From the NCBI GenBank assembly GCA_038818725.1, contig JAWAYL010000003.1, forward strand, positions 1,791-65,790: a stretch of 64,000 nucleotides of DNA, written 5' to 3'. How positions within the stretch are numbered: the stretch's first letter is position 1; the number at the start of each line of letters is the position of its first letter. The notes beneath the pieces were generated by a model that searched no databases, was not told where the DNA came from, and was given only the letters and a program-made list of their open reading frames with translations. Below, in pieces: positions 2,989 through 64,000 of this stretch. The DNA comes from Thermoplasmatota archaeon. GTDB lineage: Archaea > Thermoplasmatota > E2 > UBA202 > JdFR-43. The position numbers and the translations under genes were made by a program.

Positions 2989-3214
2989 GCCAACCCTCTT
3001 CCTCTTTTTATATATTTTTATAAAAATTGAAATTATTTTAGTTTCTTTCCTGTTCATCTAAGCAAGAAAGCAATTTTGCCTCTTCTTTTCATGAGCTATC
3101 AAATTATTTTGAAGGAAAACCAAGATTTTTCGAATTTACTGCTTGAAAGCATATAAAGGCTTCATCAAAAAATTTATTTATATCTTACTAATTTATTTTA
3201 GGAGGCTGATAAAA

Positions 3215-12605: not shown

Positions 12606-14897
12606 ATGAAAAAGATAGCAATACTTATTGCAGGAATTATGTTTGTGTCATTATCCAGTTTTCCAAGCAAAGCATTTTCCAACGGAGGCGAGATTTCTGG
12701 TGTTGCATTAGCAGTTGATGGAAATATAATTACTGTTGGCTACATGCTTGAGAACGATAAATATGTAATGACTGTTGAAAAATATGACAGCCAGAATGGA
12801 TATTTAATCTGGAGCAAAAAATTCGGTACATATTCACAGAATATTGGAAAAGCAGTTGTTGTTGATGCCAGCGGAAACATTTATGCGGGCACAGTTGCTG
12901 GCAGGAGTGCTGCGGGGATTGAAATCCCATCAACCGACTACTTAATTGTCAAATATGATAAAAATGGAAAGGAGATATGGAATAAAACATATGATAATGG
13001 TTTTGCAGATTTTTTAATGGATATGGCAATAGATGAAGATAATAATGTTTATGCAACTGGAATGACCCTTTATCTTTCTGGTGGGCAGAATTTATCGAAT
13101 ATAGATTTCTGGACAATAAAAATTGGTGGGGATGGAAATATAATCAAGCAGGATAAATATGATGAGGAGATGGATGCAGCTTTTGGAATAGATATTAAAG
13201 GAAGTAAGGTTATTGTTGCGGGAACAGTTCAGAAAGGAGAGGAGCAGAGCAAATACTGCATAGTTATTTATAACAAAGATTTAGTTCCTATTTCAACCAT
13301 ATATTATGAAACTGGAATATGCTCTGCATCTGATGTTGCAATTTTCGATGATGGAAGCTTTGCTGTTACAGGAAGCAAGGATGATGATATATTAACAATT
13401 CTTTATGATAGCAATGGAAATAAGAAAAAAGAATTTATTGAAGGAGGAAATAAAAAAGATGATGCCCTCGCAATTTCTTCTGATGGAAGCAATTTTGTTA
13501 TAGGTGGTTATGCAACTGAGAATTTTAAAAAGAAATGGTATATTGCAAAATATACTCAGAATTCAAAATTGTGGGAAATAAAAGATGTAGAAGGAGAAGT
13601 AAAAAGAGTTTTAATAGATAAGGAGGGAAATGTATATGCAGTTGGTTATAAACTTATAGGAGGAAATGAAATTCCATGTATAAGGAAATATTCTTCAAAT
13701 GGAAATTTTATATGGGAAGGAAAAGCAGGTGAGCCACCTCAGCCCTTAAAAGCTGATTTCAGATGGCTTCCTCCAAGCCCAACAAGAGCAGATGTTATTA
13801 GATTTTATGATAACTCAACTGGAGAAATAAACTCATGGGAATGGGATTTTGGAGATGGAAGCTTTAGTTACGAAAAAAATCCAAAGCATAAATACACTAC
13901 TGTTGGAAAATTTAATGTAACTTTAAAGATTAGGGGTCCAGAAGGAGAGGCAAATGTAACAAAGGAAATTTATATTTCAAATGCTCTTCCATTTGCTGAT
14001 TTTGACTGGAATCCAAAAAATCCTGTGGAAAAAGTAAATATAACTTTCAATGCAAGCATTAGCTATGATTTAGATGGAATCATAGTAAATTATACTTGGC
14101 AATTTGGAGATGGAAGCATTGCATATGGAAAAGAAGTTATTCATGCTTATAATAGCAAGGGAAATTATACAGTCAATTTGACAGTGTTGGATAATGACGG
14201 AGGAGAAAAAAGAATATCAAAATTAATTATAGTTGGCGAGAAAGAAGCAAATCCACCATTTGCAATTTTCAAAATTAAAGAAAGAGCTGGAAAGGGAGAA
14301 ACTGTTTTAATTGATGCAAGTGAGAGTTATGATAATGGCACTATTGTCAAATATATATGGGATTTTGGAGATGGAGCTAATGTAACAAAAACTCAGCCGT
14401 TTGTAGAGCATGTATGGTATAAGGATGGTGAATACAGGGTTACACTTATAGTTGAAGATGATGAGGGGTATCAATCATCGTATTCAAGGATTATAGTCGT
14501 AGGGGGTTTGCCAGAGTTAATGATTAATGCGCCATCTGAAATCTCTTGTGAGAAAAATAAAGAAAAATCTTTTAAAATTAATATTTCAGCTGTTAACCAA
14601 TCCTTATTCTATTTGAATTTCTCTTTTGAAATTGAGGGAAATATTGAGGTAAATCCACAAATAAATAACTTTAACATTTCTGCTGGTGACATAAAAGAGA
14701 TTGAAATAAAAGTTATTGCAAAGGAGAAAGGAAAGATAAAGATAAGATTAATTGGAGAAGATATAGAAAATAATGTTCCAGTAGAAAGCAATGAAGCAAT
14801 TGTTTTGGTTAATTTATCAGAAAAAACACCTTCTTTTGAGCTATTTGCATTTATATTTGCAATAATTGCTGTTTTGCTAATAAGAAGAAGGAAATGA
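12606..14897 (+). CDS. Secreted surface protein: SBBP-like beta-propeller repeats, three PKD domains, and a PGF-CTERM-like C-terminal sorting tail
   Basis: Signal peptide MKKIAILIAGIMFVSLSSFPSKA. PKD signatures WEWDFGDGS, YTWQFGDGS, YIWDFGDGA. C-terminus TPSFELFAFIFAIIAVLLIRRRK. Confidence 0.75.
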   Translation: MKKIAILIAGIMFVSLSSFPSKAFSNGGEISGVALAVDGNIITVGYMLENDKYVMTVEKYDSQNGYLIWSKKFGTYSQNIGKAVVVDASGNIYAGTVAGRSAAGIEIPSTDYLIVKYDKNGKEIWNKTYDNGFADFLMDMAIDEDNNVYATGMTLYLSGGQNLSNIDFWTIKIGGDGNIIKQDKYDEEMDAAFGIDIKGSKVIVAGTVQKGEEQSKYCIVIYNKDLVPISTIYYETGICSASDVAIFDDGSFAVTGSKDDDILTILYDSNGNKKKEFIEGGNKKDDALAISSDGSNFVIGGYATENFKKKWYIAKYTQNSKLWEIKDVEGEVKRVLIDKEGNVYAVGYKLIGGNEIPCIRKYSSNGNFIWEGKAGEPPQPLKADFRWLPPSPTRADVIRFYDNSTGEINSWEWDFGDGSFSYEKNPKHKYTTVGKFNVTLKIRGPEGEANVTKEIYISNALPFADFDWNPKNPVEKVNITFNASISYDLDGIIVNYTWQFGDGSIAYGKEVIHAYNSKGNYTVNLTVLDNDGGEKRISKLIIVGEKEANPPFAIFKIKERAGKGETVLIDASESYDNGTIVKYIWDFGDGANVTKTQPFVEHVWYKDGEYRVTLIVEDDEGYQSSYSRIIVVGGLPELMINAPSEISCEKNKEKSFKINISAVNQSLFYLNFSFEIEGNIEVNPQINNFNISAGDIKEIEIKVIAKEKGKIKIRLIGEDIENNVPVESNEAIVLVNLSEKTPSFELFAFIFAIIAVLLIRRRK

Positions 14898-27119: not shown

Positions 27120-30100
27120 ATGAAAGGAAAAGCGAAAATAGCGGTAGGAATTGTGGTGTTATTAGCGATATCTGCGATAAGCTTTGGCATAACAATGCAG
27201 CCACAGCAGAGCAAACCTATAACAAAATTGCAGAAAAAGATAAAAACAACAGATATATCTGGAAATGAAAAAATAGAAAGCTACCTTCTCGACAGCTACA
27301 TAAGGGATGATGGCGAAGAAGCTCTTTTATTTGCTGAAGGAGACGATGCTGGCTATAATGTTGATACAGGAAATGAATTTAAGAGAGCTTTGCCAATCTA
27401 TCCTGGCGAAATTAGGGATTTAGCGCCTGGAAGAAAATTCACTGGACAACTTGATCCAGGAAGGGACAATGAAGACTGGTATTCATTTTCTGTATGTGAA
27501 AAACAAAAGATAAAAGCTACGCTTACCCCCTCTTCAAACTTTGATTTACAGCTTGCAAATCCTAGCGGCTATGTTGTTGCAACTTCAGCAAATGCAGGAA
27601 ATGCTGCGGAAAGCGTTGAATTTACTGCTAACGTGACAGGTTTATGGGCAATTCGCATATATGCAGGGAGCGGAGCAAGCGCTGGCGGCTATACTTTTGA
27701 TGTTAAAATAGAGGGGCAGAACGATGCGGGCACAGGCAAGGATGCTGGAAATAGCATTTCGCAGGCAACAGCAATAACTCCTGGAACATATAATGGATAT
27801 ATGGATATGAATGACTGGGAAGATTGGTATAGCTTTAGTGTTAGTGCTGGGCAGGGAATAAAAGTAGAAATAAAACCAATGCAGAAATCAGATTTTGACA
27901 TACACCTTTATGACCCAACTGGCAAATGGGTTTATAGTGCTCAATATTATGGGAATGATACTCTTGAATATCCAGCAGATAAAAGCGGAACATGGTATAT
28001 AAAAATAGATATGTTCCCAGGATGGGATAAAAGCAAATGGCCAGAAAATTACTTCCTCTATGGCTCTGGAGTATATGAGTTAACATTAACTCTCGGTGTA
28101 TCAGCTGCGCAGCCACCAGGCCCAATTCCACAGCGTGAAATAATTCCTGTTGCACAGACATTTATTGTAAATGATAATCCAAATAGCAATAGCGATGAAT
28201 ATGCATATATAGCTGCTATACCAGCTGCAAACTATATTAAAGATGGAAAGAGATATGTTTCCCCAATTGTTTATAGAGGAGTAAATAAGCAAACTCATTG
28301 GTTTGGAACAGTTGATGATACAACTCAATATTTGCTTGATGATTGGAATACATATCTTGCAAGGCATGGAATGACAGCAAAAGAATATGTATTGAATGCG
28401 GATCCAGTTAAAGCAGCTGCTGAAATAGCAACTACAAAATGGACAAGTTCAAGCACTGCTGTTGTTACTGTAGATGGTAGCGACTTTAGCGATGAAATTA
28501 ATACAATAGTAGACAAAGATGCAACACTTATAGTTAAAACAAAGCAAATGGTTGCTCCAAAAGGAAGTTCAAAACTTAAAGATTTGGGAGGAAAGCAGGC
28601 ATTGCCAATGTTTTTGGATAAGAGCTGGGGAGCAATGACAGTCTATACACATGGCTCTGATTCGCCAGCAGTAGGAATAATAACTCCAAGATATGAGCCA
28701 GGCACTGAAGAAGATTGGCCTCATCCATATGACGCAAGAGGAGACAATACAAATATATACTTCCCTGTTTCAGTCCCAGGGTTATGGATTCCATATGTTG
28801 GTTCAAACTCCGGCGACTGGACGCTTGAAGTAACTGTTTATAGTGGAGATAGATATACAATTCCAATTTCAACAACAGATTGCAGTATAAAAGTTACTGT
28901 AACAACAGATGAGCCAAGCTATTTAGAAGTATTCCTTATTGATCCTTATGCAAATATAAGAGATCCTTCTGTGCCACACTGGAACGGTGGACCAATAAAT
29001 CCAATTCATGTATGGAATGGCGGTCATTGGGAAGGCATAGGATTTGAGAAATGGCGCAGGTGGGAGCCCACATACAGTAAAGAGCATACTGTTGAAGCTC
29101 ATTATCCAATGACAGGAAAATGGACCGCAATTGTTGCTCCTCACTATCCATATGGACAGGAAAAGACAAGCGACTCAATACCATATCATATAAAAATAGA
29201 GGTGAGGCAGCATAATCCAAAGAGAGTTAATGCTGGCTTGTCTGCTGCAAATGCTGCTGTAATTGCTTCATTGAAACATGCTCCATTGCTTTATGTAAAA
29301 GAGGATAGCATACCTCCTGAAACAACAAACGCATTGACAAAGCTTGGAGTATCAAACATAATATTTGTAAATATTGGAAAAGTCAGCTCTGTAAGCTTGC
29401 CAGGAAGTGTTACAGAATATAAGACAATGGCAGAAGTAGTTGATGCAATAAAGAAAGATCCAAAATCAGAAAATTTCATAACAATTACTTCATTTGGCAC
29501 ATTAAATGGCTATTTTGCTCCTGCAGCAATGATTGCAGCATATCATGGTTCACCTGTTTTGAGCATTGGCGAAGCAGCTGAGGCATATGATATACTTGAT
29601 AAAGCAACAACATGGCGCACATATGGTGGAGGATGGTATCACGGATGCAGAGCTCAGGGGCATTTGCCATCAATGAGTGAGCCATTTGACTGGATAGATT
29701 TCTTAAAGGATTTACTTGGAGGAAATATACCAAGCCCAGGCTTTGATTTAGAAAAAAGATGGTTTACCGCAATACATGATGGAATACATAACCTTACACT
29801 TAAATACAATCTTGATTTGCCAGGAAAGGAAGCTTATTTATTTGTTGCAGATAGAGAGGATGATATTCGCCATCTTGCAATACTTGCAATGACAGGAAAT
29901 AATTCCTATGCAGGACAAATAATATTTGACACGCCTGCAATGCAAACCGCGCTGGTATGCAGAGATATATTATATCCAGCAATAATTTATGCAAACCCAG
30001 GAAGGAATGTAACAACTTCTCAGCTGATGAACTTCCCAGATGGAAATACATGGCGCACAAATGATGGAAAATCATATTCAGTATTTTCAAGCCGTGAATT

Positions 30101-30806
30101 AAAGGCGTCATTCAGCTCACATGGAAGATTTTATGAAGGACATTGCATATGGGAAAATCTACTTAAGAGATATAATACAGGAGTAAGCATTAGCTATTAT
30201 TCCGGTCATGGAACAGGAGGAAGCGGAATTTCCGCACAGCCACGCAACTGGGCTGAAGATTTCCCACAAGCAGAGCCGAGATATGAACATTTGCATGATT
30301 TCACATGGTGGGATGGATGGCGAGGATATATGTATGATGACACTCAAACAAAAGATCCAAGATGGGGTGGATTTACATGGTATAATCCAAAAGAACCAAA
30401 TCTATATGACATAATTCACTTCAAGTGGGTTGATCAGCTATTCCAGAATTTGCACAGCGAAATAGAATTATGGATGTCATGCACAACTGGACAGCATTTT
30501 GGTCCAGACATATATCTTGAGCATGGAGCAGCACTTTGGTATGGAAATGCGGGCACAGGACTATGCCCACAGGAAGATTTGCTCGATGATTGGTGGATAC
30601 ATGATTTCCTAGTTGAAGGAAAATCAATAGGAGAAGCATTATCAACATACATATATTTGCATCAGCGCGACTATACAACAGGCGATGATTTTGCAATGTA
30701 TGGTCCATCATCAATGCAGGTTACAAATGTTCAAGTGATCTTTGGAGATCCAACACTTATATGCTATAGCCCAGAATGGGTTGAGCCAACACCAGTAGCA
30801 CCATAA
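27120..30806 (+). CDS. Large secreted protein: two PPC (pre-peptidase C-terminal) domains plus a divergent C25/gingipain-like His-Cys peptidase region
   Basis: GGAGG RBS and signal anchor MKGKAKIAVGIVVLLAISAISFG. PPC signatures EDWYSFSV...FDLQLANPSG and EDWYSFSV...FDIHLYDPTG. Candidate dyad SYYSGHGTGGSG / LWMSCTTGQ. Confidence 0.7.
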   Translation: MKGKAKIAVGIVVLLAISAISFGITMQPQQSKPITKLQKKIKTTDISGNEKIESYLLDSYIRDDGEEALLFAEGDDAGYNVDTGNEFKRALPIYPGEIRDLAPGRKFTGQLDPGRDNEDWYSFSVCEKQKIKATLTPSSNFDLQLANPSGYVVATSANAGNAAESVEFTANVTGLWAIRIYAGSGASAGGYTFDVKIEGQNDAGTGKDAGNSISQATAITPGTYNGYMDMNDWEDWYSFSVSAGQGIKVEIKPMQKSDFDIHLYDPTGKWVYSAQYYGNDTLEYPADKSGTWYIKIDMFPGWDKSKWPENYFLYGSGVYELTLTLGVSAAQPPGPIPQREIIPVAQTFIVNDNPNSNSDEYAYIAAIPAANYIKDGKRYVSPIVYRGVNKQTHWFGTVDDTTQYLLDDWNTYLARHGMTAKEYVLNADPVKAAAEIATTKWTSSSTAVVTVDGSDFSDEINTIVDKDATLIVKTKQMVAPKGSSKLKDLGGKQALPMFLDKSWGAMTVYTHGSDSPAVGIITPRYEPGTEEDWPHPYDARGDNTNIYFPVSVPGLWIPYVGSNSGDWTLEVTVYSGDRYTIPISTTDCSIKVTVTTDEPSYLEVFLIDPYANIRDPSVPHWNGGPINPIHVWNGGHWEGIGFEKWRRWEPTYSKEHTVEAHYPMTGKWTAIVAPHYPYGQEKTSDSIPYHIKIEVRQHNPKRVNAGLSAANAAVIASLKHAPLLYVKEDSIPPETTNALTKLGVSNIIFVNIGKVSSVSLPGSVTEYKTMAEVVDAIKKDPKSENFITITSFGTLNGYFAPAAMIAAYHGSPVLSIGEAAEAYDILDKATTWRTYGGGWYHGCRAQGHLPSMSEPFDWIDFLKDLLGGNIPSPGFDLEKRWFTAIHDGIHNLTLKYNLDLPGKEAYLFVADREDDIRHLAILAMTGNNSYAGQIIFDTPAMQTALVCRDILYPAIIYANPGRNVTTSQLMNFPDGNTWRTNDGKSYSVFSSRELKASFSSHGRFYEGHCIWENLLKRYNTGVSISYYSGHGTGGSGISAQPRNWAEDFPQAEPRYEHLHDFTWWDGWRGYMYDDTQTKDPRWGGFTWYNPKEPNLYDIIHFKWVDQLFQNLHSEIELWMSCTTGQHFGPDIYLEHGAALWYGNAGTGLCPQEDLLDDWWIHDFLVEGKSIGEALSTYIYLHQRDYTTGDDFAMYGPSSMQVTNVQVIFGDPTLICYSPEWVEPTPVAP

Positions 30807-32587: not shown

Positions 32588-33604
32588 ATTTTCAACTGCT
32601 TTGGAAACAAGTTTAACACATTCTTCAAAATCGTTTAAACTAATCATCTCTACGCCTGAATGCATATATCTTGTTGGAACACTTATTACTCCACAAGGAA
32701 TTCCCTCTTTTGTTAGATTTATTGCTGTTGCATCTGTTGTTCCGCCTTCGCCTACTTCAAGCTGATATTTTATTCCCTCTTTTTTTGCTGTTTCCTCAAG
32801 CCACCTAAGCACATTCCTATGAACAATCAATCCACGCCCGCCAGCATCTACAACAGTTATAACCGCGCCGCCATCAACTTTTATGCTTTTCTCTTTTTCA
32901 TCTAAGCCAGGATAATCTTTTGCATTTGCTACCTCGCAAACTATTGCAACGCTTGGGGAAATTTTATAAGCGCTTGTTTTAGCTCCTTTTAGCCCCACTT
33001 CTTCCTGAACTGTCCCAACTGCATATATTTTTGAATTGCTTTTTATTCTTTTAATTGCCTCAATCATCATTGCAATTCCTATTCTATCATCAATCGCTTT
33101 TCCAGTTATTCTATTATTTATTAACTCCTTCATTTCGACATCAAGCGTTATAGGGCTTCCAATCTTTATTCCCTCTTTTTCCACCTCTTCTCTGCTTTTT
33201 GCTCCTATATCTATAAACATTTCCTCCGCTAGAATTGGTTTTTTCTTTTCCTCCTCTTTCATTAAATGAGGTGGCTTTGAGCCAATTATTCCATATCTTT
33301 TTCCCTTCTCACCATGAATAATAACTCTCCTATTTATCAAGCTCTGATCAAACCATCCTCCAATCTTTAAAAATTTTATAAAGCCATCTTCACTTATACT
33401 TTTTACCATAAGTCCAATTTCATCCATGTGGGCGGCGAGCATGATGCTTGGCTCTTCTCCGTCTTTAAAAGCAATTATATTTCCTAAATTATCCACTTCT
33501 ATTTTATCAACAAAATTTTCGAGCTCTTCTTTTATAATCTCTCTTATTTCATCTTCATATCCAGAAATGCCATGAGCATTGCATAGTTTTTTTATTAGTT
33601 CCAT
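32567..33604 (-). CDS. M42-family aminopeptidase (TET/FrvX-like)
   Basis: HMDEIGLMV, DDRIG, VQEEVGLKGA metal-binding motifs; 345 aa. Confidence 0.8.
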   Translation of the reverse strand: MELIKKLCNAHGISGYEDEIREIIKEELENFVDKIEVDNLGNIIAFKDGEEPSIMLAAHMDEIGLMVKSISEDGFIKFLKIGGWFDQSLINRRVIIHGEKGKRYGIIGSKPPHLMKEEEKKKPILAEEMFIDIGAKSREEVEKEGIKIGSPITLDVEMKELINNRITGKAIDDRIGIAMMIEAIKRIKSNSKIYAVGTVQEEVGLKGAKTSAYKISPSVAIVCEVANAKDYPGLDEKEKSIKVDGGAVITVVDAGGRGLIVHRNVLRWLEETAKKEGIKYQLEVGEGGTTDATAINLTKEGIPCGVISVPTRYMHSGVEMISLNDFEECVKLVSKAVENLRFFYE

Positions 33605-35001
33605 GAAGCATATTCCTTGAGAATATTTAAAATTTGCATTGATTTAAAAACATAAATTCTTTTTTCATCCGACCAATTGCTTAAAAAGCCATTCTCATCT
33701 TCGGCAATAACTTTTATTTTATAAATTCCCATTTTGTTCCATGAATGCGTTATTTTAATTTTAATTCCTGATTCATAAAATTCAGTCCATTCATCTACTA
33801 TATTATCATTATTCCAGTCCCATCCGTATCTTATTTTATCTCCATCAAAATCACTTGAAAATGTTTCATAAAAATATTTTTTGCCGGTTATTGCAAAAAT
33901 TCTTCCTTCTGGCTTTTGTGGTTTCTCTGGCTTATAATTTATCTTTTTGGCATATTTTAAATCAAGATTACTCCTGTCAACATAGCTTATATGAGGATAA
34001 CCATTTAAATCAATAGCAATTGATGCATATGCTCCAACATCTCCTTCTTCATCTACTTTTTCTATATGCCATATTCCATCAAAATATGCATAATTTAAAT
34101 TCCATCCTTTCCATCCAAAATATGCAATATGAATTCTTCCATAGCTATCGATTGCAATTGATGCACCTTTTGAATTATAAAATCCTATTAAGTCAGGATC
34201 GATAATTTCTATTTTCCATTTTTTCCCGTCAAAATATGCATGTTTTAAAAACCAAGCATCGTCTCTTGAGATATCATAGTAGCATATATGTGGATTTGAA
34301 TTTTTATCTATTGCAATTGAAGTCGATTCCCATATTATACTATTTTTATCAATTTCTTCTACAACCCATTTGTCTTCTTTTAAAAAAGCATAAAATAATT
34401 TGCCTCTTACATTTCCATAGCTTATATGAGGATTTCCATCTAAATCAACAGCAATTGAAGAATAAATTCCACAACCAGCAGATGAATCAACAACTTCTAT
34501 GCTCTTTTCGTTTCCATAAATTCTTGCATATTTTAAATGCCCATTTTTCTCATCGTAATAGCTTATATGCACAGCATCTTTTGATATAGCAATTGAACAA
34601 TATTTGCCAACATTTTCGGAATCAATTATATCAATTTTCCAAGAGCCGTTCTTTTTTGCATATTTAAGATTTTCATTTGTTGCATCATAATAAACTAAAT
34701 GTAAGCATCCATTTGCATCAACTGCAATTGAGGAATATACCCCAACATCAGCAGATGCATCAACAACTTCAATGCCCCATTTTCCATTAACAAAAGATGC
34801 AACCTTTAAAACCTTGCTATCAATATCATAATAAGAAATATAAATTCTATCTTTATAGATACATATGCTTGTATCCATTCCTATATCTCCTTGCATATCA
34901 ATTGTTTCTATCTCCCACCTTCCATCTTCACTAAAACCTAGAGGTGCAAGAATAAGAAAAGTTGTTAAAATTAAAATCGATTTCATGAAAATAAATAACA
35001 A
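33595..35001 (-). CDS. Secreted protein with about 9 tandem ~45-aa beta-propeller-type repeats and a C-terminal PKD-like domain
   Basis: Signal peptide; repeats of form W.IE.VD..G.VG.YSSIA(I/V)D.NG.PHISYYD...LKYA. C-terminal FSSDFDGD...WDWNNDN. Confidence 0.6.
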   Translation of the reverse strand: MLFIFMKSILILTTFLILAPLGFSEDGRWEIETIDMQGDIGMDTSICIYKDRIYISYYDIDSKVLKVASFVNGKWGIEVVDASADVGVYSSIAVDANGCLHLVYYDATNENLKYAKKNGSWKIDIIDSENVGKYCSIAISKDAVHISYYDEKNGHLKYARIYGNEKSIEVVDSSAGCGIYSSIAVDLDGNPHISYGNVRGKLFYAFLKEDKWVVEEIDKNSIIWESTSIAIDKNSNPHICYYDISRDDAWFLKHAYFDGKKWKIEIIDPDLIGFYNSKGASIAIDSYGRIHIAYFGWKGWNLNYAYFDGIWHIEKVDEEGDVGAYASIAIDLNGYPHISYVDRSNLDLKYAKKINYKPEKPQKPEGRIFAITGKKYFYETFSSDFDGDKIRYGWDWNNDNIVDEWTEFYESGIKIKITHSWNKMGIYKIKVIAEDENGFLSNWSDEKRIYVFKSMQILNILKEYASWN

Positions 35002-49585: not shown

Positions 49586-51448
49586 TTAAGGATATCCTCC
49601 TATTTTTAAGCTTGGGTCGCCTAGCAATACCCATTCCTCAACTGTTTTACAATCAATCACATCTTTCATTGGGTCGCGAACCGCTATATAGTCAATTATT
49701 GCAGTTCCCCATGCTTCACCGAGCATATCTTTTCCTTTAGCTCCGTATGCACGGAAAAATCTCTCTTCTATGAATCCGCCAAAGTATTCAACTTCGTCCG
49801 GCACACCATTTTTGTTGTCATCATATCCACCTCCATGCCCATAGCCCAAGCCAGTGTTTCCAAAAGTGGCTATTGCTCCTTTATTTGCCATCTTCACTAA
49901 ATGCCAGCTAAAGCATTCATATGTTGGCTGATATGTCCATGGATTTTGCAGATCATCAAGCAAGCTTATATTAAATTCGCTGTTATGGCATCCTCCTATA
50001 ACTACAATTGGCTGCTTTTCTCCATTGCTAAGTAAATCCATATTGTAGGTCATCAATCCATTTACCCATGGTCCTTCTCCATTTTTGAAATGAGTTGCCC
50101 ATGCAGTTGGACTTCCATGTCCATCCATCGCAACAAAACCAAAGCCATTGCTCCAAGTTTTTATTACATTTATCCATGCAAATCTGCCAGCAAGAGGAGC
50201 AGGTTCAACATGTCCATATGTAAGGGTTCCATCAGATACATATAAACTTGTTTTAACAAACTTGCTCGCCATATAGTTATTATAGAACCAAGAAGTAGAA
50301 ACTTCTCCTTCAAAAACATCATTTCCTCCAAAAGTATCTCCTCCAATTAAAAGCATCTTTTTAAACCATTCTTTGCCATATGCATTGTTTTCATAATTAA
50401 CTATTTTATCAATCACATTCTGCAATTCCTTCAAGCTTTGACAAGCAAGTCTACCAACATATACATCTGGAGCTAAATCCAGCTTATCTTTTCCATATTT
50501 AAATGACCAAGCTCCAAAAACACCATCTCCATTTGTATCCCATGAAGAGAATGAGCCATCCGCATTATATATATCTGCAAAATATAAATCGCTTAAATAT
50601 CCAAATTCTTCCCGATCATCAAGAGCAGCATATCTTACAGGACAGTACCATAGAGCATCGTTGCTTGTTGTGGCTCCGTCCATCCCCCAGTTGCCGGTGA
50701 GATATGATCTTTTACCACCTACAAGCATAACATATTTTATTCCATATTTTTCGAGCACATCTTTTATGAAATACTTCACTTTTTCTGCACCATCCCTTCC
50801 TTCATAATTTGAATAAATGTTTTCAACCTTCTCAGAAATTACTCTTAAACCTTTTTCCTCTTTGTGTTGAATCAACCTTGCTATTTCATTTTCCCATTCT
50901 GAAGGATATATTATTAGCAAATCTTTTTCACTTTCACTCACCCCTTTATTTGGCAAATCGTGTGTAATTTTAATTTCAAAATCATTTGCTATTTCAACCA
51001 TATTCTCTTTTGCAATGTACCTCACTGGATATAAATGAATTGCAACAATCGTAGATAGCTTGCCTTCATAAAGCCCACCATATTCATTAATGGTATACCA
51101 TTCCTGTGGATATATTTCATATGCTTCACCATCCCCTTCATATTTTATATTTGTTCCATATGCGACCGCAGGCGGAGCGACAATTATGCTTGCTTTCTTC
51201 TTTTCTATTCCTTTTGGATTGCACTCTATGCTAACCTTTGTTCCAAGAGGAAACACATATGTTTTTACATAATAGGGCAACATTGGTTTTCCTGGAGATG
51301 AAGTATAGTAAGCATCGCTGTATTTTCCCCCATATATTTCCGCATATTCAATTTCTTCAAAATTTTTTGTGCTTTTTCTGTTATCCAAGCTTACAGCACT
51401 TAAAACAAGCATCATTAAAACTATTCCTGCTATACCTACTTTCCTCAT
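49586..51448 (-). CDS. Secreted peptidase C25 (gingipain-like) family protein
   Basis: Signal peptide. YVMLVGG, DVYVGRL, MDGHGSPTAW (His) and VVIGGCHNSEF (Cys), closely resembling the gingipain catalytic motifs. Confidence 0.8.
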   Translation of the reverse strand: MRKVGIAGIVLMMLVLSAVSLDNRKSTKNFEEIEYAEIYGGKYSDAYYTSSPGKPMLPYYVKTYVFPLGTKVSIECNPKGIEKKKASIIVAPPAVAYGTNIKYEGDGEAYEIYPQEWYTINEYGGLYEGKLSTIVAIHLYPVRYIAKENMVEIANDFEIKITHDLPNKGVSESEKDLLIIYPSEWENEIARLIQHKEEKGLRVISEKVENIYSNYEGRDGAEKVKYFIKDVLEKYGIKYVMLVGGKRSYLTGNWGMDGATTSNDALWYCPVRYAALDDREEFGYLSDLYFADIYNADGSFSSWDTNGDGVFGAWSFKYGKDKLDLAPDVYVGRLACQSLKELQNVIDKIVNYENNAYGKEWFKKMLLIGGDTFGGNDVFEGEVSTSWFYNNYMASKFVKTSLYVSDGTLTYGHVEPAPLAGRFAWINVIKTWSNGFGFVAMDGHGSPTAWATHFKNGEGPWVNGLMTYNMDLLSNGEKQPIVVIGGCHNSEFNISLLDDLQNPWTYQPTYECFSWHLVKMANKGAIATFGNTGLGYGHGGGYDDNKNGVPDEVEYFGGFIEERFFRAYGAKGKDMLGEAWGTAIIDYIAVRDPMKDVIDCKTVEEWVLLGDPSLKIGGYP

Positions 51449-57315: not shown

Positions 57316-57357
57316 CATTTTTCAATAAAATTTATATTTAGGTAAGGTATTAAACAC

Positions 57358-60300
57358 GTGATTGAAATGGCAGCATATAAAAAAATGGGTATAATTTTTT
57401 TAAGTATATTGATGCTAACATCGACTTTTCCAGTTTATAGCGGCTCTAGCCGAGGTGAAAACCTGGAAAATAGTGAAACACTTCTGTATAAAATAAATTT
57501 TCCAGAGCCATCCCTTAAAGAAATTGAGGTGAATGGAAAAGAGTTTACTATAGTAGAGATACCTGATTGTATTAATACCGGCAAAAGTGGAGCCCCCTCC
57601 TTGCCTGTGTATGGTGTGCAGATTCTTCTTCCTTATGGAAGTGAATTAGAAGAAGTAAAAGTAAAAGGTGAAAAAACCGCGATATCAACAAATCTTAGGG
57701 GGAAACCAGTATTTCCATACCAAGAGCCTGTGCCCATTGGATATAAGGGAAAGGAATTTTTCATTGATGAAAATGCTTATAAAATTGAAAAATATCCTGA
57801 AAAAATTTACGATGTTATAGGAGTTGGATATTGTAGAGGATATGCAATACTTGCAATGAATTTATTCCCTGTAGAGTATTATCCCGTAGAAGGGGAGTTA
57901 TTTTACTATCCATTAATTGAAATAGAATTAAAATTAAATAAGAACGGTTATGTAAATGAGTTTTACAGAAATAATCCGAATGATAGAAGTTATGTTGCTT
58001 CTCTTGTAATTAACCCAGAGATATTAGATTCTTATAAAGTAAAAAGCGTATTTGAATATCCTGGAGGAATTTGCGATCCTTCACAAAATTATGACTATGT
58101 AATAATCACCAGACAGGCACTTGCAAACTTCTCCGGAAATTATACCTGGGCACATTTCATCGCAAGGAAGCAGGCGGAAGGAATTCAGGCAATAGTAGTT
58201 ACAGTAGAAGATATTGTAGCATGCCAAGCTTATTGGAACACAACTCCTATTTTTAATGATACCCCAGCAAAAATAAGGGAATTTTTGAGAGATGCTTATA
58301 TTGACTGGGGGATTGAATATGTTCTTATTGCTGGAGATAATGATGGAAGTGCTATGGTTCAAAGAAGATTGCTTCACTATGGAACAGGAGCATATGCAGA
58401 AAATGTTGACTCAGATTTATATTGGAGCAACCTTGATAATACATTCAATAGTGATATGGATAGTCAGTGGGGAGAATCAGATGATTCAGGATTCGATTTG
58501 TATTCAGAACTATTTATAGGAAGTATACCATGCGATACTGGAACAGATATTTCAAACTGGCTCACAAAAAGCTTTTATTATGCAGACTCAATGGAAAAGG
58601 ATTATCTTGAAAATGTTGGATTTTATGGAGGAGATACAGGATGGGCATGCCAAGGAGATGACTTTATGGATTTCACGTTGTATGGCACAAATAATTGGCT
58701 GGGTCCGGATCCAAATTATGATGGTCCGTGGCCAAGCTGGCTTGGCTTCCTCTATGGTTTCGACACATGGAATTTATCAAATCCAGGAATGGAATTCAAT
58801 ACAAGCGTTAGATGGACTGCTGAGCCGCCGAATCAAGGATGGCAAGGTGGCTCTGAATCTGCTGCAATTGCTGGTTTGAGAAATGCAATAAATAATAATC
58901 TCTGTGCAATTATAAATGGTATAGCCCATGCTAACGAGCATATGTCTCTGGATGTATATGATACAGAATGGGAGTCACAATATTTCAATACAAAACCATT
59001 TTTCATACATGATTACGGATGTCATTGTGGAGATATGGATGCAACAGATGATGGTGTGCTTCATTCAATGCTTTTCCATTCAAATATAGAGCTTGCTTTT
59101 GCATGCGTTTATAATACAGGATATGGATGGGGAAATTATTATTCAACAAATTCAAGTAGTGCATTGCAACAAAAATTATTCTGGGATTACATGCTCAATA
59201 CAAGCAAGTGTGGCGGAGTAATAAACTGGCGCCTTGGAAAAGCGCAAGCCTATTCAAAAGATGCAATGGCTCCTACTATAAATTGGGATCCTGGATATGA
59301 GACCTGGCGAGGAATTATCGAAAGCTGTCTGCTGTTTGGTGATCCTCATCAATTAATCAAGCCGCCAGAACTTCCAGAGCATAATGTAGGGGTTGTCTCC
59401 CTTAAAGTAGATGACCATGTTTTACCTGGTGAGCAGGTTTATATAAATGCAACTATAATAAATAGTGGCTTGAACAATGAAACAAATGTTATTGTAAGAT
59501 GTCGTATAAATGAAACAGAGATAGGAAATATAACAATTCCATTTTTCCAAAGCCAAACAATGCAAGAAGTAAGCTTTTTATGGATTCCAGCAATGGGATG
59601 GTATAATGTTGTTATAAACGTAACTATTCCAGGGGTAGAAGAAAATATCACTGTAGATAATGAAAAGAGCAAAGTTGTTGTTGCTGGGCCTGATGTCGCA
59701 GTTTCTTCAATAGATACACCTGTTTTTGCATCGGTTGGTACTATTACTGAAATAAAAGCTACTTTAAGCAATTTGGGAAAAGAGGATGAAATAGTCACCG
59801 TAAAAATAGTTGTAAACAATGTAACAGTAGATAATATTTCATTGATTTTGCAAGGGAGAAGGACAGAGAATATTTCATTGTTATGGAATCCTACCTATGA
59901 AGGATTTTATCCTGTAAAAATAGAAGTATTATGCGCAAATGATGTATATCCTGAAAATAACTTCAGAAGCAATAATGTAAATGTTGTAACTGCTTTAGGA
60001 TATGTTCTTCTTGTGGATGATGATAAAGGAGACAATTATGAAATTTATTACGAAAATGCATTGATGGCAGCTGGTTATGTTTATACTCTATGGAATAGGG
60101 ATGCGCAAGGAGTACCATCTCCTTCTTATATGGCAACATTTACAGCGGTTGTATGGTTTACTGGAGACGATTATACAACAACATTAACAGCCGAAGATAT
60201 AAATGCCCTTACAACTTATCTAAACAATGGAGGTAAATTGTTTATAACAGGCCAAGATATAGGTTTTGATATAAATACGGATCCTTTCTATAGCAATTAT

Positions 60301-62523
60301 CTACATGCTCAATATCTTGTAGATGATACAAATATTTATATCCTGAATGGGATAGCTGGTGACCCGATCGGAAATAATTTAACCATAGGCATCTCAAGTG
60401 GTGACGGGGCAAACAATCAGAATTGGCCATCTGGAATAAATCCGATAGGAGGAGCTACGCCGGTATTTCAATATTCTGGCTCATCTTATTATGGAGGAAT
60501 AAAATACGCTGGAACATATAAAGTAGTTTATTTCTCATTTGGTTTTGAAGCAATTAATAGTATGGCTCATAGAACAGAAGTTATGAGCAGAATAATGAAC
60601 TGGTTTGGGGGAGGAGGAAATGTATCAGATATTTATATAAATCCGTTGAATCTTGCATATGTAGTTGGAAGAGGAGAAATAATACATGAAAATATCGTGA
60701 TCGGAAATTCAATAAATGCAACAAGGAATCTGACATTTTCAATATCCTTACCACATGGCTTTATATTGCAATGGACTCATCAGCACGGCGGCGACGGCCA
60801 CTCAGAACTCGCCCAACCAGTAGGAGATATAGACGAAGATGGAATAAATGAATTTATTATTGGAGGATATGGAAGTGGAGGAACTTATATCTTTTCATAT
60901 GATTCATATAGTAAAACATATGTGCAAGAACATTTCTGGACACATGCTGGTGGCTCCTATAATGTGCCTTCTGGAGCTTGTGTTGTTGATTTAGATGATA
61001 ATGGTGACCTTGAGTTTGTGGTTTCGTGGGAATATAGTGGAGCAAATGGAATTCATGCTTATGATTGGAATGGAACAACGCTTACGGAGCTTGCGTGGTA
61101 TACAGGCACAGGATACGAGTTTGCATATGATGTTTATGCGTGTGATTATGACGACGATGGAGATGTTGAAGTGCTAATTGCAAATAGACCATCTTCTTCC
61201 ACTGGCTATCATGTTACTGCTTTAAGATGGAATAATACAACAAATCAATTTGAGAGAGAAATTTCATGGGGCAGTGGTCAAGCAACAGAATGTCCAATGG
61301 TATGGAGTGGAGATACTGATGGAGACGGAAAAACTGAAGTTATTGCAAGTGCTGGTACAAATACTGTATATGCTTTAAATTATCAGAACGGGAGTTGGCT
61401 GGCTACTATAGTTGCAAGTGGTCTGCCAGCTCATCCGTACGGTGTGGCATGCGGTGATTTAGATAGTGATGGGATAGATGAAATTGCTTTCGGATTAGAT
61501 GGAACACAGGCTTATATATACAAATGGAATGCAACATCTTCATCTTATCAACAGGTCTGGTACTATAATTATGCAGGAGAAAGTGATATTATAGAAGGAG
61601 TTGCAATTGGAGATGTAGATAATGATGGGCTAAAAGAAGTGGTTATTGGTCCAACTTATTTACACATTGTTAAATGGAATGGAACAGCATACAAAGAAGT
61701 TGCTACAATAACTGAAACCCAAGGAATGCTCGCTGGAGTAAATGTTGGAGATTTTGACAGCGATGGGAAAAATGAAATTAAAGCTTGTGACATTTTATCA
61801 GATGTGGGTAAGGAATGGATATTTGAGTATATAGAAGAGCCAAATTGGATTTTAATAAATCCAACGAATGGAACACTTCAGCCTGGACAAGAAATAAATA
61901 TATCTCTAACTATCAATACAGCAAATCTTGAGAATTTAACAAAAATTTATTTGCAGATAAATACAAATGATCCAGATGAAGCTATAATCCGCCTACCACT
62001 CTATATTTCTGTATTAAATGAAATAACCCATAACTTCTCCTTAGTTAATCCTTGGAACTTAATTACAATTCCAGTTTTAGCAAATTTAACTGCAAAAAGC
62101 TTAATTGAAAATATCTCAGCTTGTAATGTTGTTGTAAGATGGGATCCAATAAATCAAAGCTATAAAATATATACAGCAGGAATGCCAGAGCAATATAATT
62201 TTGCTTTAATTCCAGGAAATGGCTATTTTGTTGGATTAAATAATCAAGCAAATTACTCAATTACAGGAATGCCAATAAGTAGTGTAGAAGTAAATTTAAG
62301 TGTTGGATGGAATATGATAGGATGGTTTAAAGATTCAACAAATGCAAAGAGCTTAATGCAAAATATAACATCATGCAATATTGTATGCAAATGGGATGCA
62401 ATAAATCAGAAATATAAAGTATATGTGCAGGGAATGCCAGATTCATATAACTTTGCTATAAACAGAGGAGATGGAGTATTTGTAAGCGTTACTCAGCCAA
62501 GCATATGGCATGGAGAGGGATAA
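57358..62523 (+). CDS. Giant (1721 aa) secreted multidomain protein with many domains (listed in evidence)
   Basis: Domains: C25-like peptidase region, two CARDB-like domains, an alpha/beta module, seven FG-GAP/VCBS repeats, and two novel C-terminal tandem repeats. Signal peptide MAAYKKMGIIFLSILMLTSTFPVYSG. Candidate His AHANEHM and Cys DYGCHCGD. FG-GAP motifs GDIDEDGINE, VDLDDNGDLE, CDYDDDGDVE, GDTDGDGKTE, GDLDSDGIDE, GDVDNDGLKE, GDFDSDGKNE. Confidence 0.8.
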   Translation: MIEMAAYKKMGIIFLSILMLTSTFPVYSGSSRGENLENSETLLYKINFPEPSLKEIEVNGKEFTIVEIPDCINTGKSGAPSLPVYGVQILLPYGSELEEVKVKGEKTAISTNLRGKPVFPYQEPVPIGYKGKEFFIDENAYKIEKYPEKIYDVIGVGYCRGYAILAMNLFPVEYYPVEGELFYYPLIEIELKLNKNGYVNEFYRNNPNDRSYVASLVINPEILDSYKVKSVFEYPGGICDPSQNYDYVIITRQALANFSGNYTWAHFIARKQAEGIQAIVVTVEDIVACQAYWNTTPIFNDTPAKIREFLRDAYIDWGIEYVLIAGDNDGSAMVQRRLLHYGTGAYAENVDSDLYWSNLDNTFNSDMDSQWGESDDSGFDLYSELFIGSIPCDTGTDISNWLTKSFYYADSMEKDYLENVGFYGGDTGWACQGDDFMDFTLYGTNNWLGPDPNYDGPWPSWLGFLYGFDTWNLSNPGMEFNTSVRWTAEPPNQGWQGGSESAAIAGLRNAINNNLCAIINGIAHANEHMSLDVYDTEWESQYFNTKPFFIHDYGCHCGDMDATDDGVLHSMLFHSNIELAFACVYNTGYGWGNYYSTNSSSALQQKLFWDYMLNTSKCGGVINWRLGKAQAYSKDAMAPTINWDPGYETWRGIIESCLLFGDPHQLIKPPELPEHNVGVVSLKVDDHVLPGEQVYINATIINSGLNNETNVIVRCRINETEIGNITIPFFQSQTMQEVSFLWIPAMGWYNVVINVTIPGVEENITVDNEKSKVVVAGPDVAVSSIDTPVFASVGTITEIKATLSNLGKEDEIVTVKIVVNNVTVDNISLILQGRRTENISLLWNPTYEGFYPVKIEVLCANDVYPENNFRSNNVNVVTALGYVLLVDDDKGDNYEIYYENALMAAGYVYTLWNRDAQGVPSPSYMATFTAVVWFTGDDYTTTLTAEDINALTTYLNNGGKLFITGQDIGFDINTDPFYSNYLHAQYLVDDTNIYILNGIAGDPIGNNLTIGISSGDGANNQNWPSGINPIGGATPVFQYSGSSYYGGIKYAGTYKVVYFSFGFEAINSMAHRTEVMSRIMNWFGGGGNVSDIYINPLNLAYVVGRGEIIHENIVIGNSINATRNLTFSISLPHGFILQWTHQHGGDGHSELAQPVGDIDEDGINEFIIGGYGSGGTYIFSYDSYSKTYVQEHFWTHAGGSYNVPSGACVVDLDDNGDLEFVVSWEYSGANGIHAYDWNGTTLTELAWYTGTGYEFAYDVYACDYDDDGDVEVLIANRPSSSTGYHVTALRWNNTTNQFEREISWGSGQATECPMVWSGDTDGDGKTEVIASAGTNTVYALNYQNGSWLATIVASGLPAHPYGVACGDLDSDGIDEIAFGLDGTQAYIYKWNATSSSYQQVWYYNYAGESDIIEGVAIGDVDNDGLKEVVIGPTYLHIVKWNGTAYKEVATITETQGMLAGVNVGDFDSDGKNEIKACDILSDVGKEWIFEYIEEPNWILINPTNGTLQPGQEINISLTINTANLENLTKIYLQINTNDPDEAIIRLPLYISVLNEITHNFSLVNPWNLITIPVLANLTAKSLIENISACNVVVRWDPINQSYKIYTAGMPEQYNFALIPGNGYFVGLNNQANYSITGMPISSVEVNLSVGWNMIGWFKDSTNAKSLMQNITSCNIVCKWDAINQKYKVYVQGMPDSYNFAINRGDGVFVSVTQPSIWHGEG

Positions 62524-62524
62524 A

Positions 62525-64000
62525 ATGAGAAAAATTATAGCAATTTTTGTTTTCTTCTCCATCTTTCTCTTATCTTTTTTAAATTTTTCTACAGGAGGAA
62601 GCCAAATTAAGAGGAGCAACTTAACTATTAATGCCTTTAACAATGGTGAAAAAATATTGATTGACTTAAAAATAGAAAAATTTGATTCTCAACAAATAGA
62701 AATAGATGGAAAAAGATATTACAAGGTTGGTATTGAAAAGGAAGGAAAAATAATGGAAAAGGGTTATCCAGAGCTTCCCAAGATATGTAGGAGTGTTATA
62801 ATTCCTGATAATATGGAGATGGAGGCAAGGATAATAGATGCAAAATTTATAGAATATGAAAATATAGATGTTGCACCTTCTAAGGGAAGCATTCTCCGAA
62901 CTATAGATCCAGATGAAGTTGAATATGAATTTGGAGAGATATATAAGGAAGATAAATGGTATCCTGGAAATATAGTAAATTTAAGGGAGCCATATATCTT
63001 AAGAGATTTTAGAGGGCAAACAGTGGAGATTTATCCTCTTCAGTATAATCCAGTTCAGAAGAAACTAAGATTTTATACTGATATAACCTTAGAAATATAT
63101 CCAAAAGAGGAAGGAGGAGCAAATGTGTATGAGAGAACAAAACCGCTTGAAAAAATTGATAGAGAGTTCAATGAAATTTACAAGAAACATTTTATAAATT
63201 ATAACAGTGCCAAATATATTCCTGTTGAAGAGGATGGAGGAATGCTTATAATATGTTATGATAGTTTTTACTCCTCAATGCTTCCCTTGGTTAGATGGAA
63301 AAACATGAAAGGGATACCAACTGAAATAGTAAATTTATCTGCTATAGGAAATACTCCAACTGCTATAAAAAATTATATCGTAAATTACTACAATACCCAT
63401 GATTTAACTTTTGTTTTGCTTGTTGGAGATGCCCAGCAAGTGCCAAGCATGTCTGCTGGAGGATATGCTTCTGATCCAAGCTATTCATATATAGTTGGAA
63501 ATGATCATTACCCAGATTTATTTGTTGGAAGATTTTCCGCTCAAAATATAGCCCAAGTTGAAACACAGGTAAATAGGAGCATAAATTACGAGAAATACCC
63601 ACAAATAGCAAATTGGTATAGCAAAGGAGTTGGAATAGCATCATCGCAAGGACCAGGAGATGACAATGAATACGACTATCAGCATATAAGAAATATAAGA
63701 AATAAATTACTCAATTACACCTATATCCAAGTTGATGAGTTATATGATGGTTCTCAGGGCGGAGAAGATGCGCCTGGCAATCCAACGCCGAGCATGGTTG
63801 CATCATCTATAAATGCTGGAAGGGGGATAATAAATTATTGCGGGCATGGAAGTGCAACTTCATGGACTACATCTGGATTTAGCAATAGCGATGTAAATTC
63901 TCTCCTAAATGATAATATGCTTCCTTTTATATGGTCTGTTGCTTGTGATAACGGAAAGTTTGATACATATGATACATGTTTTGCGGAAGCATGGCTGAGA
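62525..64000 (+). CDS. Peptidase C25 (gingipain-like) family protein, 3'-truncated by the window end
   Basis: Starts 1 nt after the giant ORF. Signal peptide. YLLLVGDAQQVP, DLFVGRFSAQN, NYCGHGSATSW (His) and IWSVACDNGKF (Cys) with gingipain-like 33-aa His-Cys spacing. Confidence 0.8.
   Translation, partial: MRKIIAIFVFFSIFLLSFLNFSTGGSQIKRSNLTINAFNNGEKILIDLKIEKFDSQQIEIDGKRYYKVGIEKEGKIMEKGYPELPKICRSVIIPDNMEMEARIIDAKFIEYENIDVAPSKGSILRTIDPDEVEYEFGEIYKEDKWYPGNIVNLREPYILRDFRGQTVEIYPLQYNPVQKKLRFYTDITLEIYPKEEGGANVYERTKPLEKIDREFNEIYKKHFINYNSAKYIPVEEDGGMLIICYDSFYSSMLPLVRWKNMKGIPTEIVNLSAIGNTPTAIKNYIVNYYNTHDLTFVLLVGDAQQVPSMSAGGYASDPSYSYIVGNDHYPDLFVGRFSAQNIAQVETQVNRSINYEKYPQIANWYSKGVGIASSQGPGDDNEYDYQHIRNIRNKLLNYTYIQVDELYDGSQGGEDAPGNPTPSMVASSINAGRGIINYCGHGSATSWTTSGFSNSDVNSLLNDNMLPFIWSVACDNGKFDTYDTCFAEAWLR

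Follow-up and report, generated by a model that had tools for sequence, protein, structure and literature searches.

The 64,000-nucleotide (nt) stretch of contig JAWAYL010000003.1 from an uncultured Thermoplasmatota archaeon (GCA_038818725.1; the complete stretch is referred to as the window in the following) ends in two adjacent genes, which an earlier interpretation of the letters (the sequence-only reading) had taken for a tandem pair of secreted, gingipain-like proteins of peptidase family C25, one of them a giant of 1721 amino acids (aa). The locus thus raises the question whether both genes encode peptidases of this family and what their products have in common. We consider it very probable that the pair comprises secreted, extracellular MEROPS C25 cysteine endopeptidase zymogens, an estimate which refers to the core claim of a secreted C25 pair and not to the role of a 167-aa C-terminal module. 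According to the sequence comparisons, this module is shared by the giant and the following gene (gene 2), and it was absent from the earlier account. Family membership, conservation of the catalytic residues, domain order, and the position, distribution and sequence homogenisation of the module are established.

The two C25 proteins and their catalytic domains

The arrangement of the pair was confirmed at the level of single nucleotides. The stop codon TAA of the giant (62521-62523) is followed by a single A (62524) and by the ATG of gene 2 (62525), which is cut by the end of the window after 492 of 831 codons. While the mechanical open reading frame (ORF) of the giant starts with a GTG and comprises 57358..62523 on the forward strand (1721 aa), GenBank and the public gene calls start it at the ATG at 57367, resulting in 1718 aa (MEM1513473.1, labeled "CARDB domain-containing protein"). 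All residue numbers of the giant given here count from the GTG at 57358. For gene 2, a complete copy of 831 aa (P0522, MEM2583826.1) is available from a sibling metagenome-assembled genome (MAG), and it is identical over the 492 aa within the window.

Judged by its sequence, gene 2 is a close relative of gingipain R. Searches with hidden Markov models (HMMs) of Pfam showed a Propeptide_C25 (E 3e-35) and a Peptidase_C25 domain (E 3e-55, 188.5 bits compared to a cut-off of 23), and the nearest solved relatives were gingipain R (RgpB, 1cvr, E 1.3e-50) and, for the prodomain, 4ief_A (E 6e-37). His441 (in CGHGS), Cys474 (in VACDNG) and Asp384 align with His211, Cys244 and Asp163 of RgpB. Asp163 lies at the bottom of the S1 pocket of RgpB, where it binds arginine, and based on the conservation of this residue gene 2 is probably Arg-specific. 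The complete copy comprises, in this order, the propeptide, the C25 domain (E 2e-62, model positions 1-374 of 374), the C25_C Ig-like domain (PF03785, E 3e-15) and then the same 167-aa module as the giant. Accordingly, both features by which a gingipain of the R type is recognised, the equivalent of Asp163 and the C25 C-terminal Ig-like domain, were found. The family of gene 2 returned 1603 matches; most of the members listed are some 800 aa long, and in many of them the C-terminal end is formed by the C25 Ig-like domain, by PKD domains or by both.

For the giant, the assignment required additional steps. A full-length hmmscan of the 1721 aa gave only Propeptide_C25 (PF08126, E 1e-8, 34.9 bits compared to a cut-off of 22), two CARDB and five FG-GAP_3 stretches, and no Peptidase_C25. 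Since the domain was recovered when aa 200-700 were scanned alone (PF01364, E 7e-22, 78.6 bits compared to a cut-off of 23, model positions 1-370 of 374), the missing match is explained by a filter artefact and not by an absence of the domain. In consequence, automated annotation can overlook the catalytic domain, and indeed the GenBank label names CARDB only. The prodomain of the giant matches that of Kgp (5mun, E 4e-7). The HMM of the giant family alone was insufficient to bring the catalytic residues into register, as it aligned to gene 2 and to a further C25 protein of the window (620 aa) only across the prodomain and the first catalytic subdomain. This was achieved by a profile-profile alignment: HHalign of the giant family against the gene 2 family showed a probability of 99.6% (E 6e-24) and placed His524 and Cys555 on the gingipain His/Cys pair. 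Among the aligned family members, His524 (IAHAN) is kept in 117 of 117 and Cys555 (DYGCHCGD) in 116 of 117, and about 120 further positions are near-invariant across archaea and bacteria. The C25-type His/Cys motifs proposed for both genes are thereby supported by the placement of the HMMs as well as by the alignment with the catalytic residues.

Because the pair is conserved and in register with that of the gingipains, we regard the giant as a C25 peptidase of the active type, from a subfamily of its own that is as yet uncharacterised, and not as a degenerate adhesin. It seems highly improbable that it is mainly an adhesin or a surface-structure protein in which the C25 domain serves as a non-catalytic pseudo-peptidase scaffold. 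Such a role would agree with the composition of the protein, two thirds of which are CARDB, FG-GAP and Ig-like modules, with a His motif (AHAN) that differs from the canonical GHG, and with the domain missed by Pfam in the full-length scan. Nonetheless, the almost complete conservation of His524, Cys555 and the further positions, together with the retained prodomain, argues for a latent and active enzyme.

The combination of CARDB and FG-GAP modules anticipated for the giant was found as expected, while the region described as adhesion-like is an Ig-like stretch with only a sub-threshold ASH/BACON match. The middle domain between CARDB and FG-GAP (aa 868-1130) is conserved in family members covering 61-66% of the query; it showed only sub-threshold matches to DUF4159 and ABC_transp_aux in Pfam, nothing in the PDB by sequence and nothing in NCBIfam.

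A database search returned 155 homologues of the giant, of which 120 were among the matches listed. The first ~700 aa of the giant are common to all 120 (47-73% identity), and the remainder varies: the C-terminal parts of these listed members comprise CARDB, BACON, HYDIN-Ig, FG-GAP, PKD, beta-helix, MAM and dockerin domains. Full-length orthologues have 1704-1724 aa and an identity of 60-64%. Based on these comparisons, the giant is assigned to a distinct, widely distributed C25 subfamily, the conserved part of which is the first ~670 aa. Homologues from Zixibacteria and Glassbacteria end in a T9SS (type IX secretion system) sorting domain. Three of these bacterial proteins (P0093, P0095 and P0115) are 52-55% identical to the giant over the first ~700 aa. 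As they are as close to it as many archaeal homologues, a transfer of this C25 subfamily between the domains of life is suggested.

Both proteins of the pair start with a K/R-rich segment followed by a hydrophobic stretch of 15-17 residues (KD17 maxima of 1.97 and 2.61), in line with the signal peptides proposed before. A signal-like N-terminus was also observed in 100 of 120 members of the giant family and in 108 of 120 members of the gene 2 family, the call being based on a hydropathy criterion. With these signal-peptide-like N-termini, the giant and gene 2 are presumably secreted. A C-terminal sorting domain of the T9SS (PF18962 / TIGR04183) was found neither in the giant nor in gene 2 nor in the module.

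The shared C-terminal module

The module consists of two units of about 84 aa, which are reflected in a direct repeat of the DNA (62088-62231 and 62340-62483). The copies of the giant and of the complete gene 2 are identical in 167 of 167 aa; the bodies of the two proteins share 21.7% identity across an aligned stretch of 327 aa. No match to the module was obtained in Pfam, NCBIfam or the PDB, neither by sequence nor by fold, and the AlphaFold2 (AF2) model (pLDDT 97) shows a compact double domain of the all-beta type that lacks a hydrophobic helix. An exhaustive search yielded 1629 cluster representatives with the module, 108 of them at E ≤ 1e-30. In 137 of the 148 top matches (93%) the module ends no more than 3 residues from the C-terminus, in proteins of 130 to 2855 aa and always as a single pair of units. 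The carriers include C25, M14 and M28 peptidases as well as PKD, NosD/beta-helix, FG-GAP, BACON, MAM and RHS proteins, and no Pfam family covers the module itself. Signal-like N-termini were observed for 77 of 113 full-length carriers compared to 3 of 113 control windows.

Across 171 carriers, the identity of the module has a median of 41% and a 99th percentile of 67%. Compared to these values, copies from one genome population (giant and gene 2) or from one contig are far more similar, with 95-100% identity on unrelated bodies. The contig in question (L092) stems from a relative and carries an unrelated 428-aa secreted protein, a gap of 1 nt and then an orthologue of the RgpB-type gene; its two module copies share 96.8% of their DNA, while the flanks with 29% are at random level. 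Several further pairs of carriers with unrelated bodies have modules that are 85-100% identical. Since the near-identical copies of L092 lie on one DNA molecule, and since the other near-identical pairs on unrelated bodies fit, these data are read as gene conversion between module copies within a genome. The module of the giant is 75% identical to that of the gene 2 orthologue, but only 43-45% identical to those carried by orthologues of the giant itself. Probably, the copy of the giant in this genome has been overwritten by the gene 2 type.

An assembly artefact, i.e. a collapsed repeat or a chimeric contig, is a very improbable explanation for the occurrence of an identical module on both genes. 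Several independent short-read assemblies do break exactly at the module: the contigs L001, L003, L004 and L091 end 30-126 nt into it (window 62020-62145), with 30-93 nt for the giant's copy, and the sole full-length record of gene 2 originates from a contig of 5.4 kb. Contig ends at the module are the classic signature of a repeat, which thus explains the fragmentation of this locus in public MAGs. On the other hand, a 71-kb GenBank contig runs through the module of the giant and through gene 2 and then 42 residues into a second identical copy, and the orthologue P0122 (72% identical) bears the module in a different assembly, namely on the contig described above with two nearly identical copies between unrelated flanks. 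Two Logan contigs that were checked end about 29 nt into the module, which fits a k-mer of about 31.

The strictly C-terminal position, the many unrelated secreted carriers and the homogenised copies suggest that the module is a device for surface retention or sorting with a co-evolving partner. The same is suggested by the giant-family members without the module, which, among the matches listed, have a transmembrane tail, a dockerin or a T9SS C-terminal domain at the terminal position. As a tentative and more specific interpretation, the module could represent an undescribed archaeal surface sorting or anchoring domain, analogous to the T9SS C-terminal domain or to dockerin, that marks a large secretome of Thermoplasmatota (peptidases, PKD, beta-helix and FG-GAP proteins) and whose copies are matched to a single co-evolving partner by gene conversion. 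When the literature was searched for a comparable archaeal sorting domain at the C-terminus, nothing relevant was obtained; as the search was limited, a description elsewhere is possible.

The main alternative, though a rather unlikely one, is a substrate- or particle-binding domain that, like a carbohydrate-binding module, tethers the enzymes to detritus or mineral. The occurrence on many different hydrolases and adhesin-like proteins and the compact all-beta double domain would agree with such a function, and nothing in the module resembles a membrane anchor. Binding modules, however, usually vary in position and copy number, which is in contrast to the extreme C-terminal location and the constant single pair observed here. 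Moreover, the devices that homologues put at this place all serve anchoring or sorting, and homogenisation on unrelated carriers fits one cellular partner better than a generic substrate.

Since family C25 includes PorU, which itself carries the sorting domain, a third interpretation was considered, according to which one of the C25 proteins would act as a PorU-like sortase, removing the module from its cargo and attaching the cargo to the surface. The module is present on both the giant and gene 2, in two genomes the RgpB-type gene follows a module-bearing gene after 1 nt, and partial NCBIfam matches to PorU models were obtained, all of which points in this direction. The matches to these models (NF033707 / NF052324) reached 72-84 bits compared to cut-offs of 420-450, however, and only the shared C25 core was aligned. 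In addition, the match of gene 2 to PorU (E 0.0045) is far weaker than that to RgpB (E 1e-50), and no conserved cleavage motif was seen upstream of the module, although no search aimed at one was made. Altogether, a PorU-like function is judged to be very improbable.

Returning to surface retention or sorting, the following sequence of events is assumed for the pair. Both proteins would be exported by the Sec pathway, and, by analogy to the gingipains, the prodomain would keep each enzyme latent until its removal. The mature enzymes would then cut detrital proteins outside the cell, in the case of gene 2 probably after arginine. Finally, the shared module may serve to hold or sort the enzymes at the cell surface and thereby keep released peptides near the cell; this last step is conceivable, yet considerably less certain than the preceding ones. 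Activity and extracellular localisation of the giant and of gene 2 are thus to be understood as predictions.

Several observations weigh against this explanation. In gene 2, Glu152 of RgpB is replaced by Gln. The giant shows AHAN in place of GHG and large insertions in its catalytic domain, and its specificity can therefore not be read from the gingipains. The 100% identity of the module copies partly depends on the 5.4-kb sibling contig, which is possibly repeat-collapsed, and the 71-kb contig confirms the second copy in this genome for its first 42 aa only. Within the module, no recognisable signature for binding lipid, glycan or S-layer was found, and its partner protein is postulated. Position, distribution and homogenisation are the evidence from which anchoring is deduced.

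Further candidates and surroundings of the pair

The positions of all features are summarised in Table 1.

Table 1. Features of the peptidase pair and of the further C25 candidates, given in positions of the window
Feature	Position	Strand	Remarks
TATA-box-like TTTATATT	57333..57340	+	~27 nt 5' of ATG 57367; read from sequence
Giant gene	57367..62523	+	1718 aa from ATG
Signal-peptide-like N-terminus of giant (MAAYKKMGIIFLSILMLTSTFPVYSG)	57367..57441	+	hydropathy
C25 propeptide of giant, aa 40-194	57475..57939	+	Pfam PF08126
C25 catalytic domain of giant, aa 247-663	58096..59346	+	PF01364
Giant His524	58927-58929	+	catalytic pair, sequence alignment
Giant Cys555	59020-59022	+	catalytic pair, sequence alignment
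Two CARDB Ig-like domains of giant, aa 684-860	59407..59937	+	PF07705, E 7e-14, two stretches
Middle domain of giant, aa 868-1130	59959..60747	+	conserved ~260 aa between CARDB and FG-GAP
FG-GAP beta-propeller region of giant, aa 1150-1480	60805..61797	+	FG-GAP_3, E 5e-27, five stretches
Ig-like linker of giant, aa 1490-1552 (weak assignment)	61825..62013	+	sub-threshold BACON_2, ASH and MSP matches only
C-terminal double-repeat module of giant, aa 1555-1721	62020..62520	+	two ~84-aa units, end WHGEG
Shine-Dalgarno-like GGAGAGGG	62512..62519	+	within the giant's final codons, 5 nt before ATG of gene 2
Gene 2, RgpB-type gingipain	62525..64000	+	492 of 831 aa in window
Signal-like N-terminus of gene 2	62525-62596	+	
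Propeptide of gene 2	62660-63205	+	
Catalytic domain of gene 2	from 63242	+	
Gene 2 Asp384	63674-63676	+	
Gene 2 His441	63845-63847	+	
Gene 2 Cys474	63944-63946	+	
Third C25 paralog, 620 aa	49586..51448	-	PF01364 E 8e-53, model 2-373/374; minimal secreted form
620-aa protein His444	50117-50119	-	
620-aa protein Cys487	49988-49990	-	
1228-aa protein, two PPC domains	27120..30806	+	C-terminal 540 aa predicted gingipain-like (clan CD)
1228-aa protein His1030	30207-30209	+	candidate catalytic residue
1228-aa protein Cys1121	30480-30482	+	candidate catalytic residue

The sequence-only reading had counted at least four C25-like paralogs in the window. In a six-frame scan with HMMs, three C25 genes were identified by sequence, namely the giant, gene 2 and the 620-aa protein, whereas the fourth candidate, the 1228-aa protein, is connected to the gingipains by its predicted fold and by conserved His and Cys residues. 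The identity among the three paralogs is about 21-23%, with 22-23% for the 620-aa protein compared to the other two. For each of the families of the giant, gene 2 and the 1228-aa protein, closer relatives (47-94% identity) occur in numerous other genomes; the wide distribution applies to these three families, for which homologues were searched. Due to the low identity of the paralogs and the widespread families, the C25 genes of the window are interpreted as old paralogs, and the lineage-specific expansion suggested earlier is not supported.

For the 1228-aa protein, Pfam finds only the PPC domains; when its C-terminal part was scanned by itself, no match was obtained up to E 10. HMMs of the C25 families gave no match, and HHalign against these families remained below 10% probability. 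Its own family is highly conserved in Thermoplasmatota and comprises 438 matches with 55-94% identity, among them one from the MBG-D single-cell genome SCGC AB-539-N05. Within this family, His1030 (YYSGHGTGG) is conserved in 57 of 58 and Cys1121 (W.SCTTG) in 56 of 58 members, together with a terminal FGDP. The AF2 model of aa 691-1228 (pLDDT 85, pTM 0.89) showed the best PDB fold matches to RgpB (E 3e-8) and Kgp (E 1e-6), followed by separase and CHAT (E to 1e-3), and both His1030 and Cys1121 are preceded by a predicted strand, as in the clan CD fold. The protein is therefore described as gingipain-like by predicted fold and not as a C25 member by sequence.

A possible fifth paralog had been seen in the 5'-truncated ORF at 1-2988. 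This candidate was rejected, since no match to C25 or to the propeptide was found in its visible part. The CARDB domain ascribed to it is sub-threshold (E 0.052). The ORF, part of a large secreted protein, contains InhA-like MAM, Big_7, Big_13 and an OmpL47-type barrel, and it shares only the accessory MAM and Ig domains with some members of the giant family.

Regarding the expression of the pair, TTTATATT upstream of the giant is a candidate archaeal promoter, possibly for a short-leader or leaderless transcript. A scan for sigma-70 promoters and terminators gave results at or below chance, the sigma-70 model being uninformative for archaea. The final codons of the giant are …GGAGAGGGATAA with GGAGAGGG inside: the end of the module, …WHGEG, is encoded by …CATGGAGAGGGATAA and doubles as a Shine-Dalgarno-like element for the downstream RgpB-type gene. 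Since this element sits in the last codons of the giant shortly before the start codon of gene 2, the two genes are likely co-transcribed, and translational coupling may be assumed. An identical junction sequence, TAA-A-ATG, was observed in the relative L092 (L092 2950-2975), so that in both genomes the RgpB-type gene starts 1 nt past the stop codon of a module-bearing gene. In another relative (L087), a giant-type gene is followed by an RgpB-type gene with a gap of 22 nt. Just 5' of the module-bearing gene pair of L092, transposase fragments (DDE_Tnp_1) are located at 554-1116.

The neighbours of the locus are archaeal housekeeping genes, i.e. aIF2-gamma, the ribosomal proteins L7Ae, S28e, L24e and S6e, and QueF. 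The aIF2-gamma of the window shows at most 72% identity to that of MAGs of Thermoplasmatales/Thermoplasmata, and the same locus is present in GenBank MAGs labeled Candidatus Thermoplasmatota archaeon. Neither the module nor a C25 gene was found within 10 kb in any of 80 loci with aIF2-gamma from Thermoplasmatota or other archaea. Amid the housekeeping genes of the window, ORFs with a weak BNR-like match (3143-4861), with three PKD domains and SBBP (12606-14897), and with BNR_4 and PKD (33595-35001, reverse strand) were observed. Given these extracellular-type domains, the window is generally rich in such proteins and not in peptidases alone.

Significance and comparison with known systems

As such, the secreted C25 pair is ordinary. 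GenBank already carries annotations for the two genes, with the labels "C25 family cysteine peptidase" and "CARDB domain-containing protein", and C25 is a known hallmark of sediment Thermoplasmatota. The novelty is modest; it concerns the shared module, which lacks an annotation, and the cryptic family with a predicted gingipain fold at 27120-30806. C25 exoenzymes hold a central place in the concept of Thermoplasmatota and Bathyarchaeia as archaea that live on detrital protein, and the locus offers a pair of very different enzymes, one RgpB-like of the Arg type and one from a conserved subfamily without a characterised member. A module common to more than 1600 protein clusters is a candidate handle for retention or sorting, which makes the retention of exoenzymes testable. 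If true, it would explain how archaea keep peptidases and released peptides close to the cell. The family of the ~1230-aa "PPC domain proteins", found also in the MBG-D single-cell genome, is widespread, and its predicted gingipain-like fold was missed by searches with Pfam, NCBIfam and family HMMs; should it consist of active peptidases, profile-based peptidase counts would miss it.

The closest biological context is given by the exported C25 peptidases of Thermoprofundales (MBG-D), Thermoplasmatota and sediment metagenomes, which belong to the same phylum and family, have the same predicted location and likewise occur in multiple copies per genome. According to two reports, exported C25 peptidases are documented in Thermoplasmatota, C25 genes are transcribed in Thermoprofundales (PMC6461988, PMC6752024), and exported C25 genes dominate sediment peptidase inventories; in anoxic sediments, no other predicted secreted peptidases are as abundant (PMC6752024). 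The host, a member of the Thermoplasmatota, agrees with this picture and thus with the proteolytic archaeon with exported C25 peptidases expected from the sequence-only reading. In the passages considered, the genes were counted by MEROPS family, and no description of the architecture of the giant subfamily, of the module or of the 1228-aa family was seen.

With respect to its catalytic core, the giant is homologous to both Kgp and PorU, and its prodomain is linked to that of Kgp. Compared to the canonical gingipains, its catalytic domain is only about 21% identical, carries insertions at roughly aa 425-500 and 565-590 and shows the motif pair AHAN...GCHCGD. Neither the giant nor gene 2 reaches the family cut-offs of PorU.

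The module resembles the T9SS C-terminal domain, dockerin and PGF-CTERM in that it forms the very C-terminal end of numerous unrelated secreted proteins, while no sequence or fold match connects it to any of the three. As a globular domain of 2 x 84 aa without a hydrophobic helix, the module is not a tripartite signal of the archaeosortase type.

The most direct counterpart of gene 2 is RgpB of Porphyromonas gingivalis (1cvr, 4ief). In both, a propeptide is followed by the catalytic domain and then by the C25 Ig-like domain, and the His, Cys and Asp residues described above are shared, with highly significant matches of the mature enzyme and of the prodomain; Glu152 is exchanged for Gln. In contrast to P. 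gingivalis, the host of gene 2 is an archaeon without an outer membrane or type IX secretion, and at the place of the T9SS C-terminal domain gene 2 carries the module that it shares with the giant.

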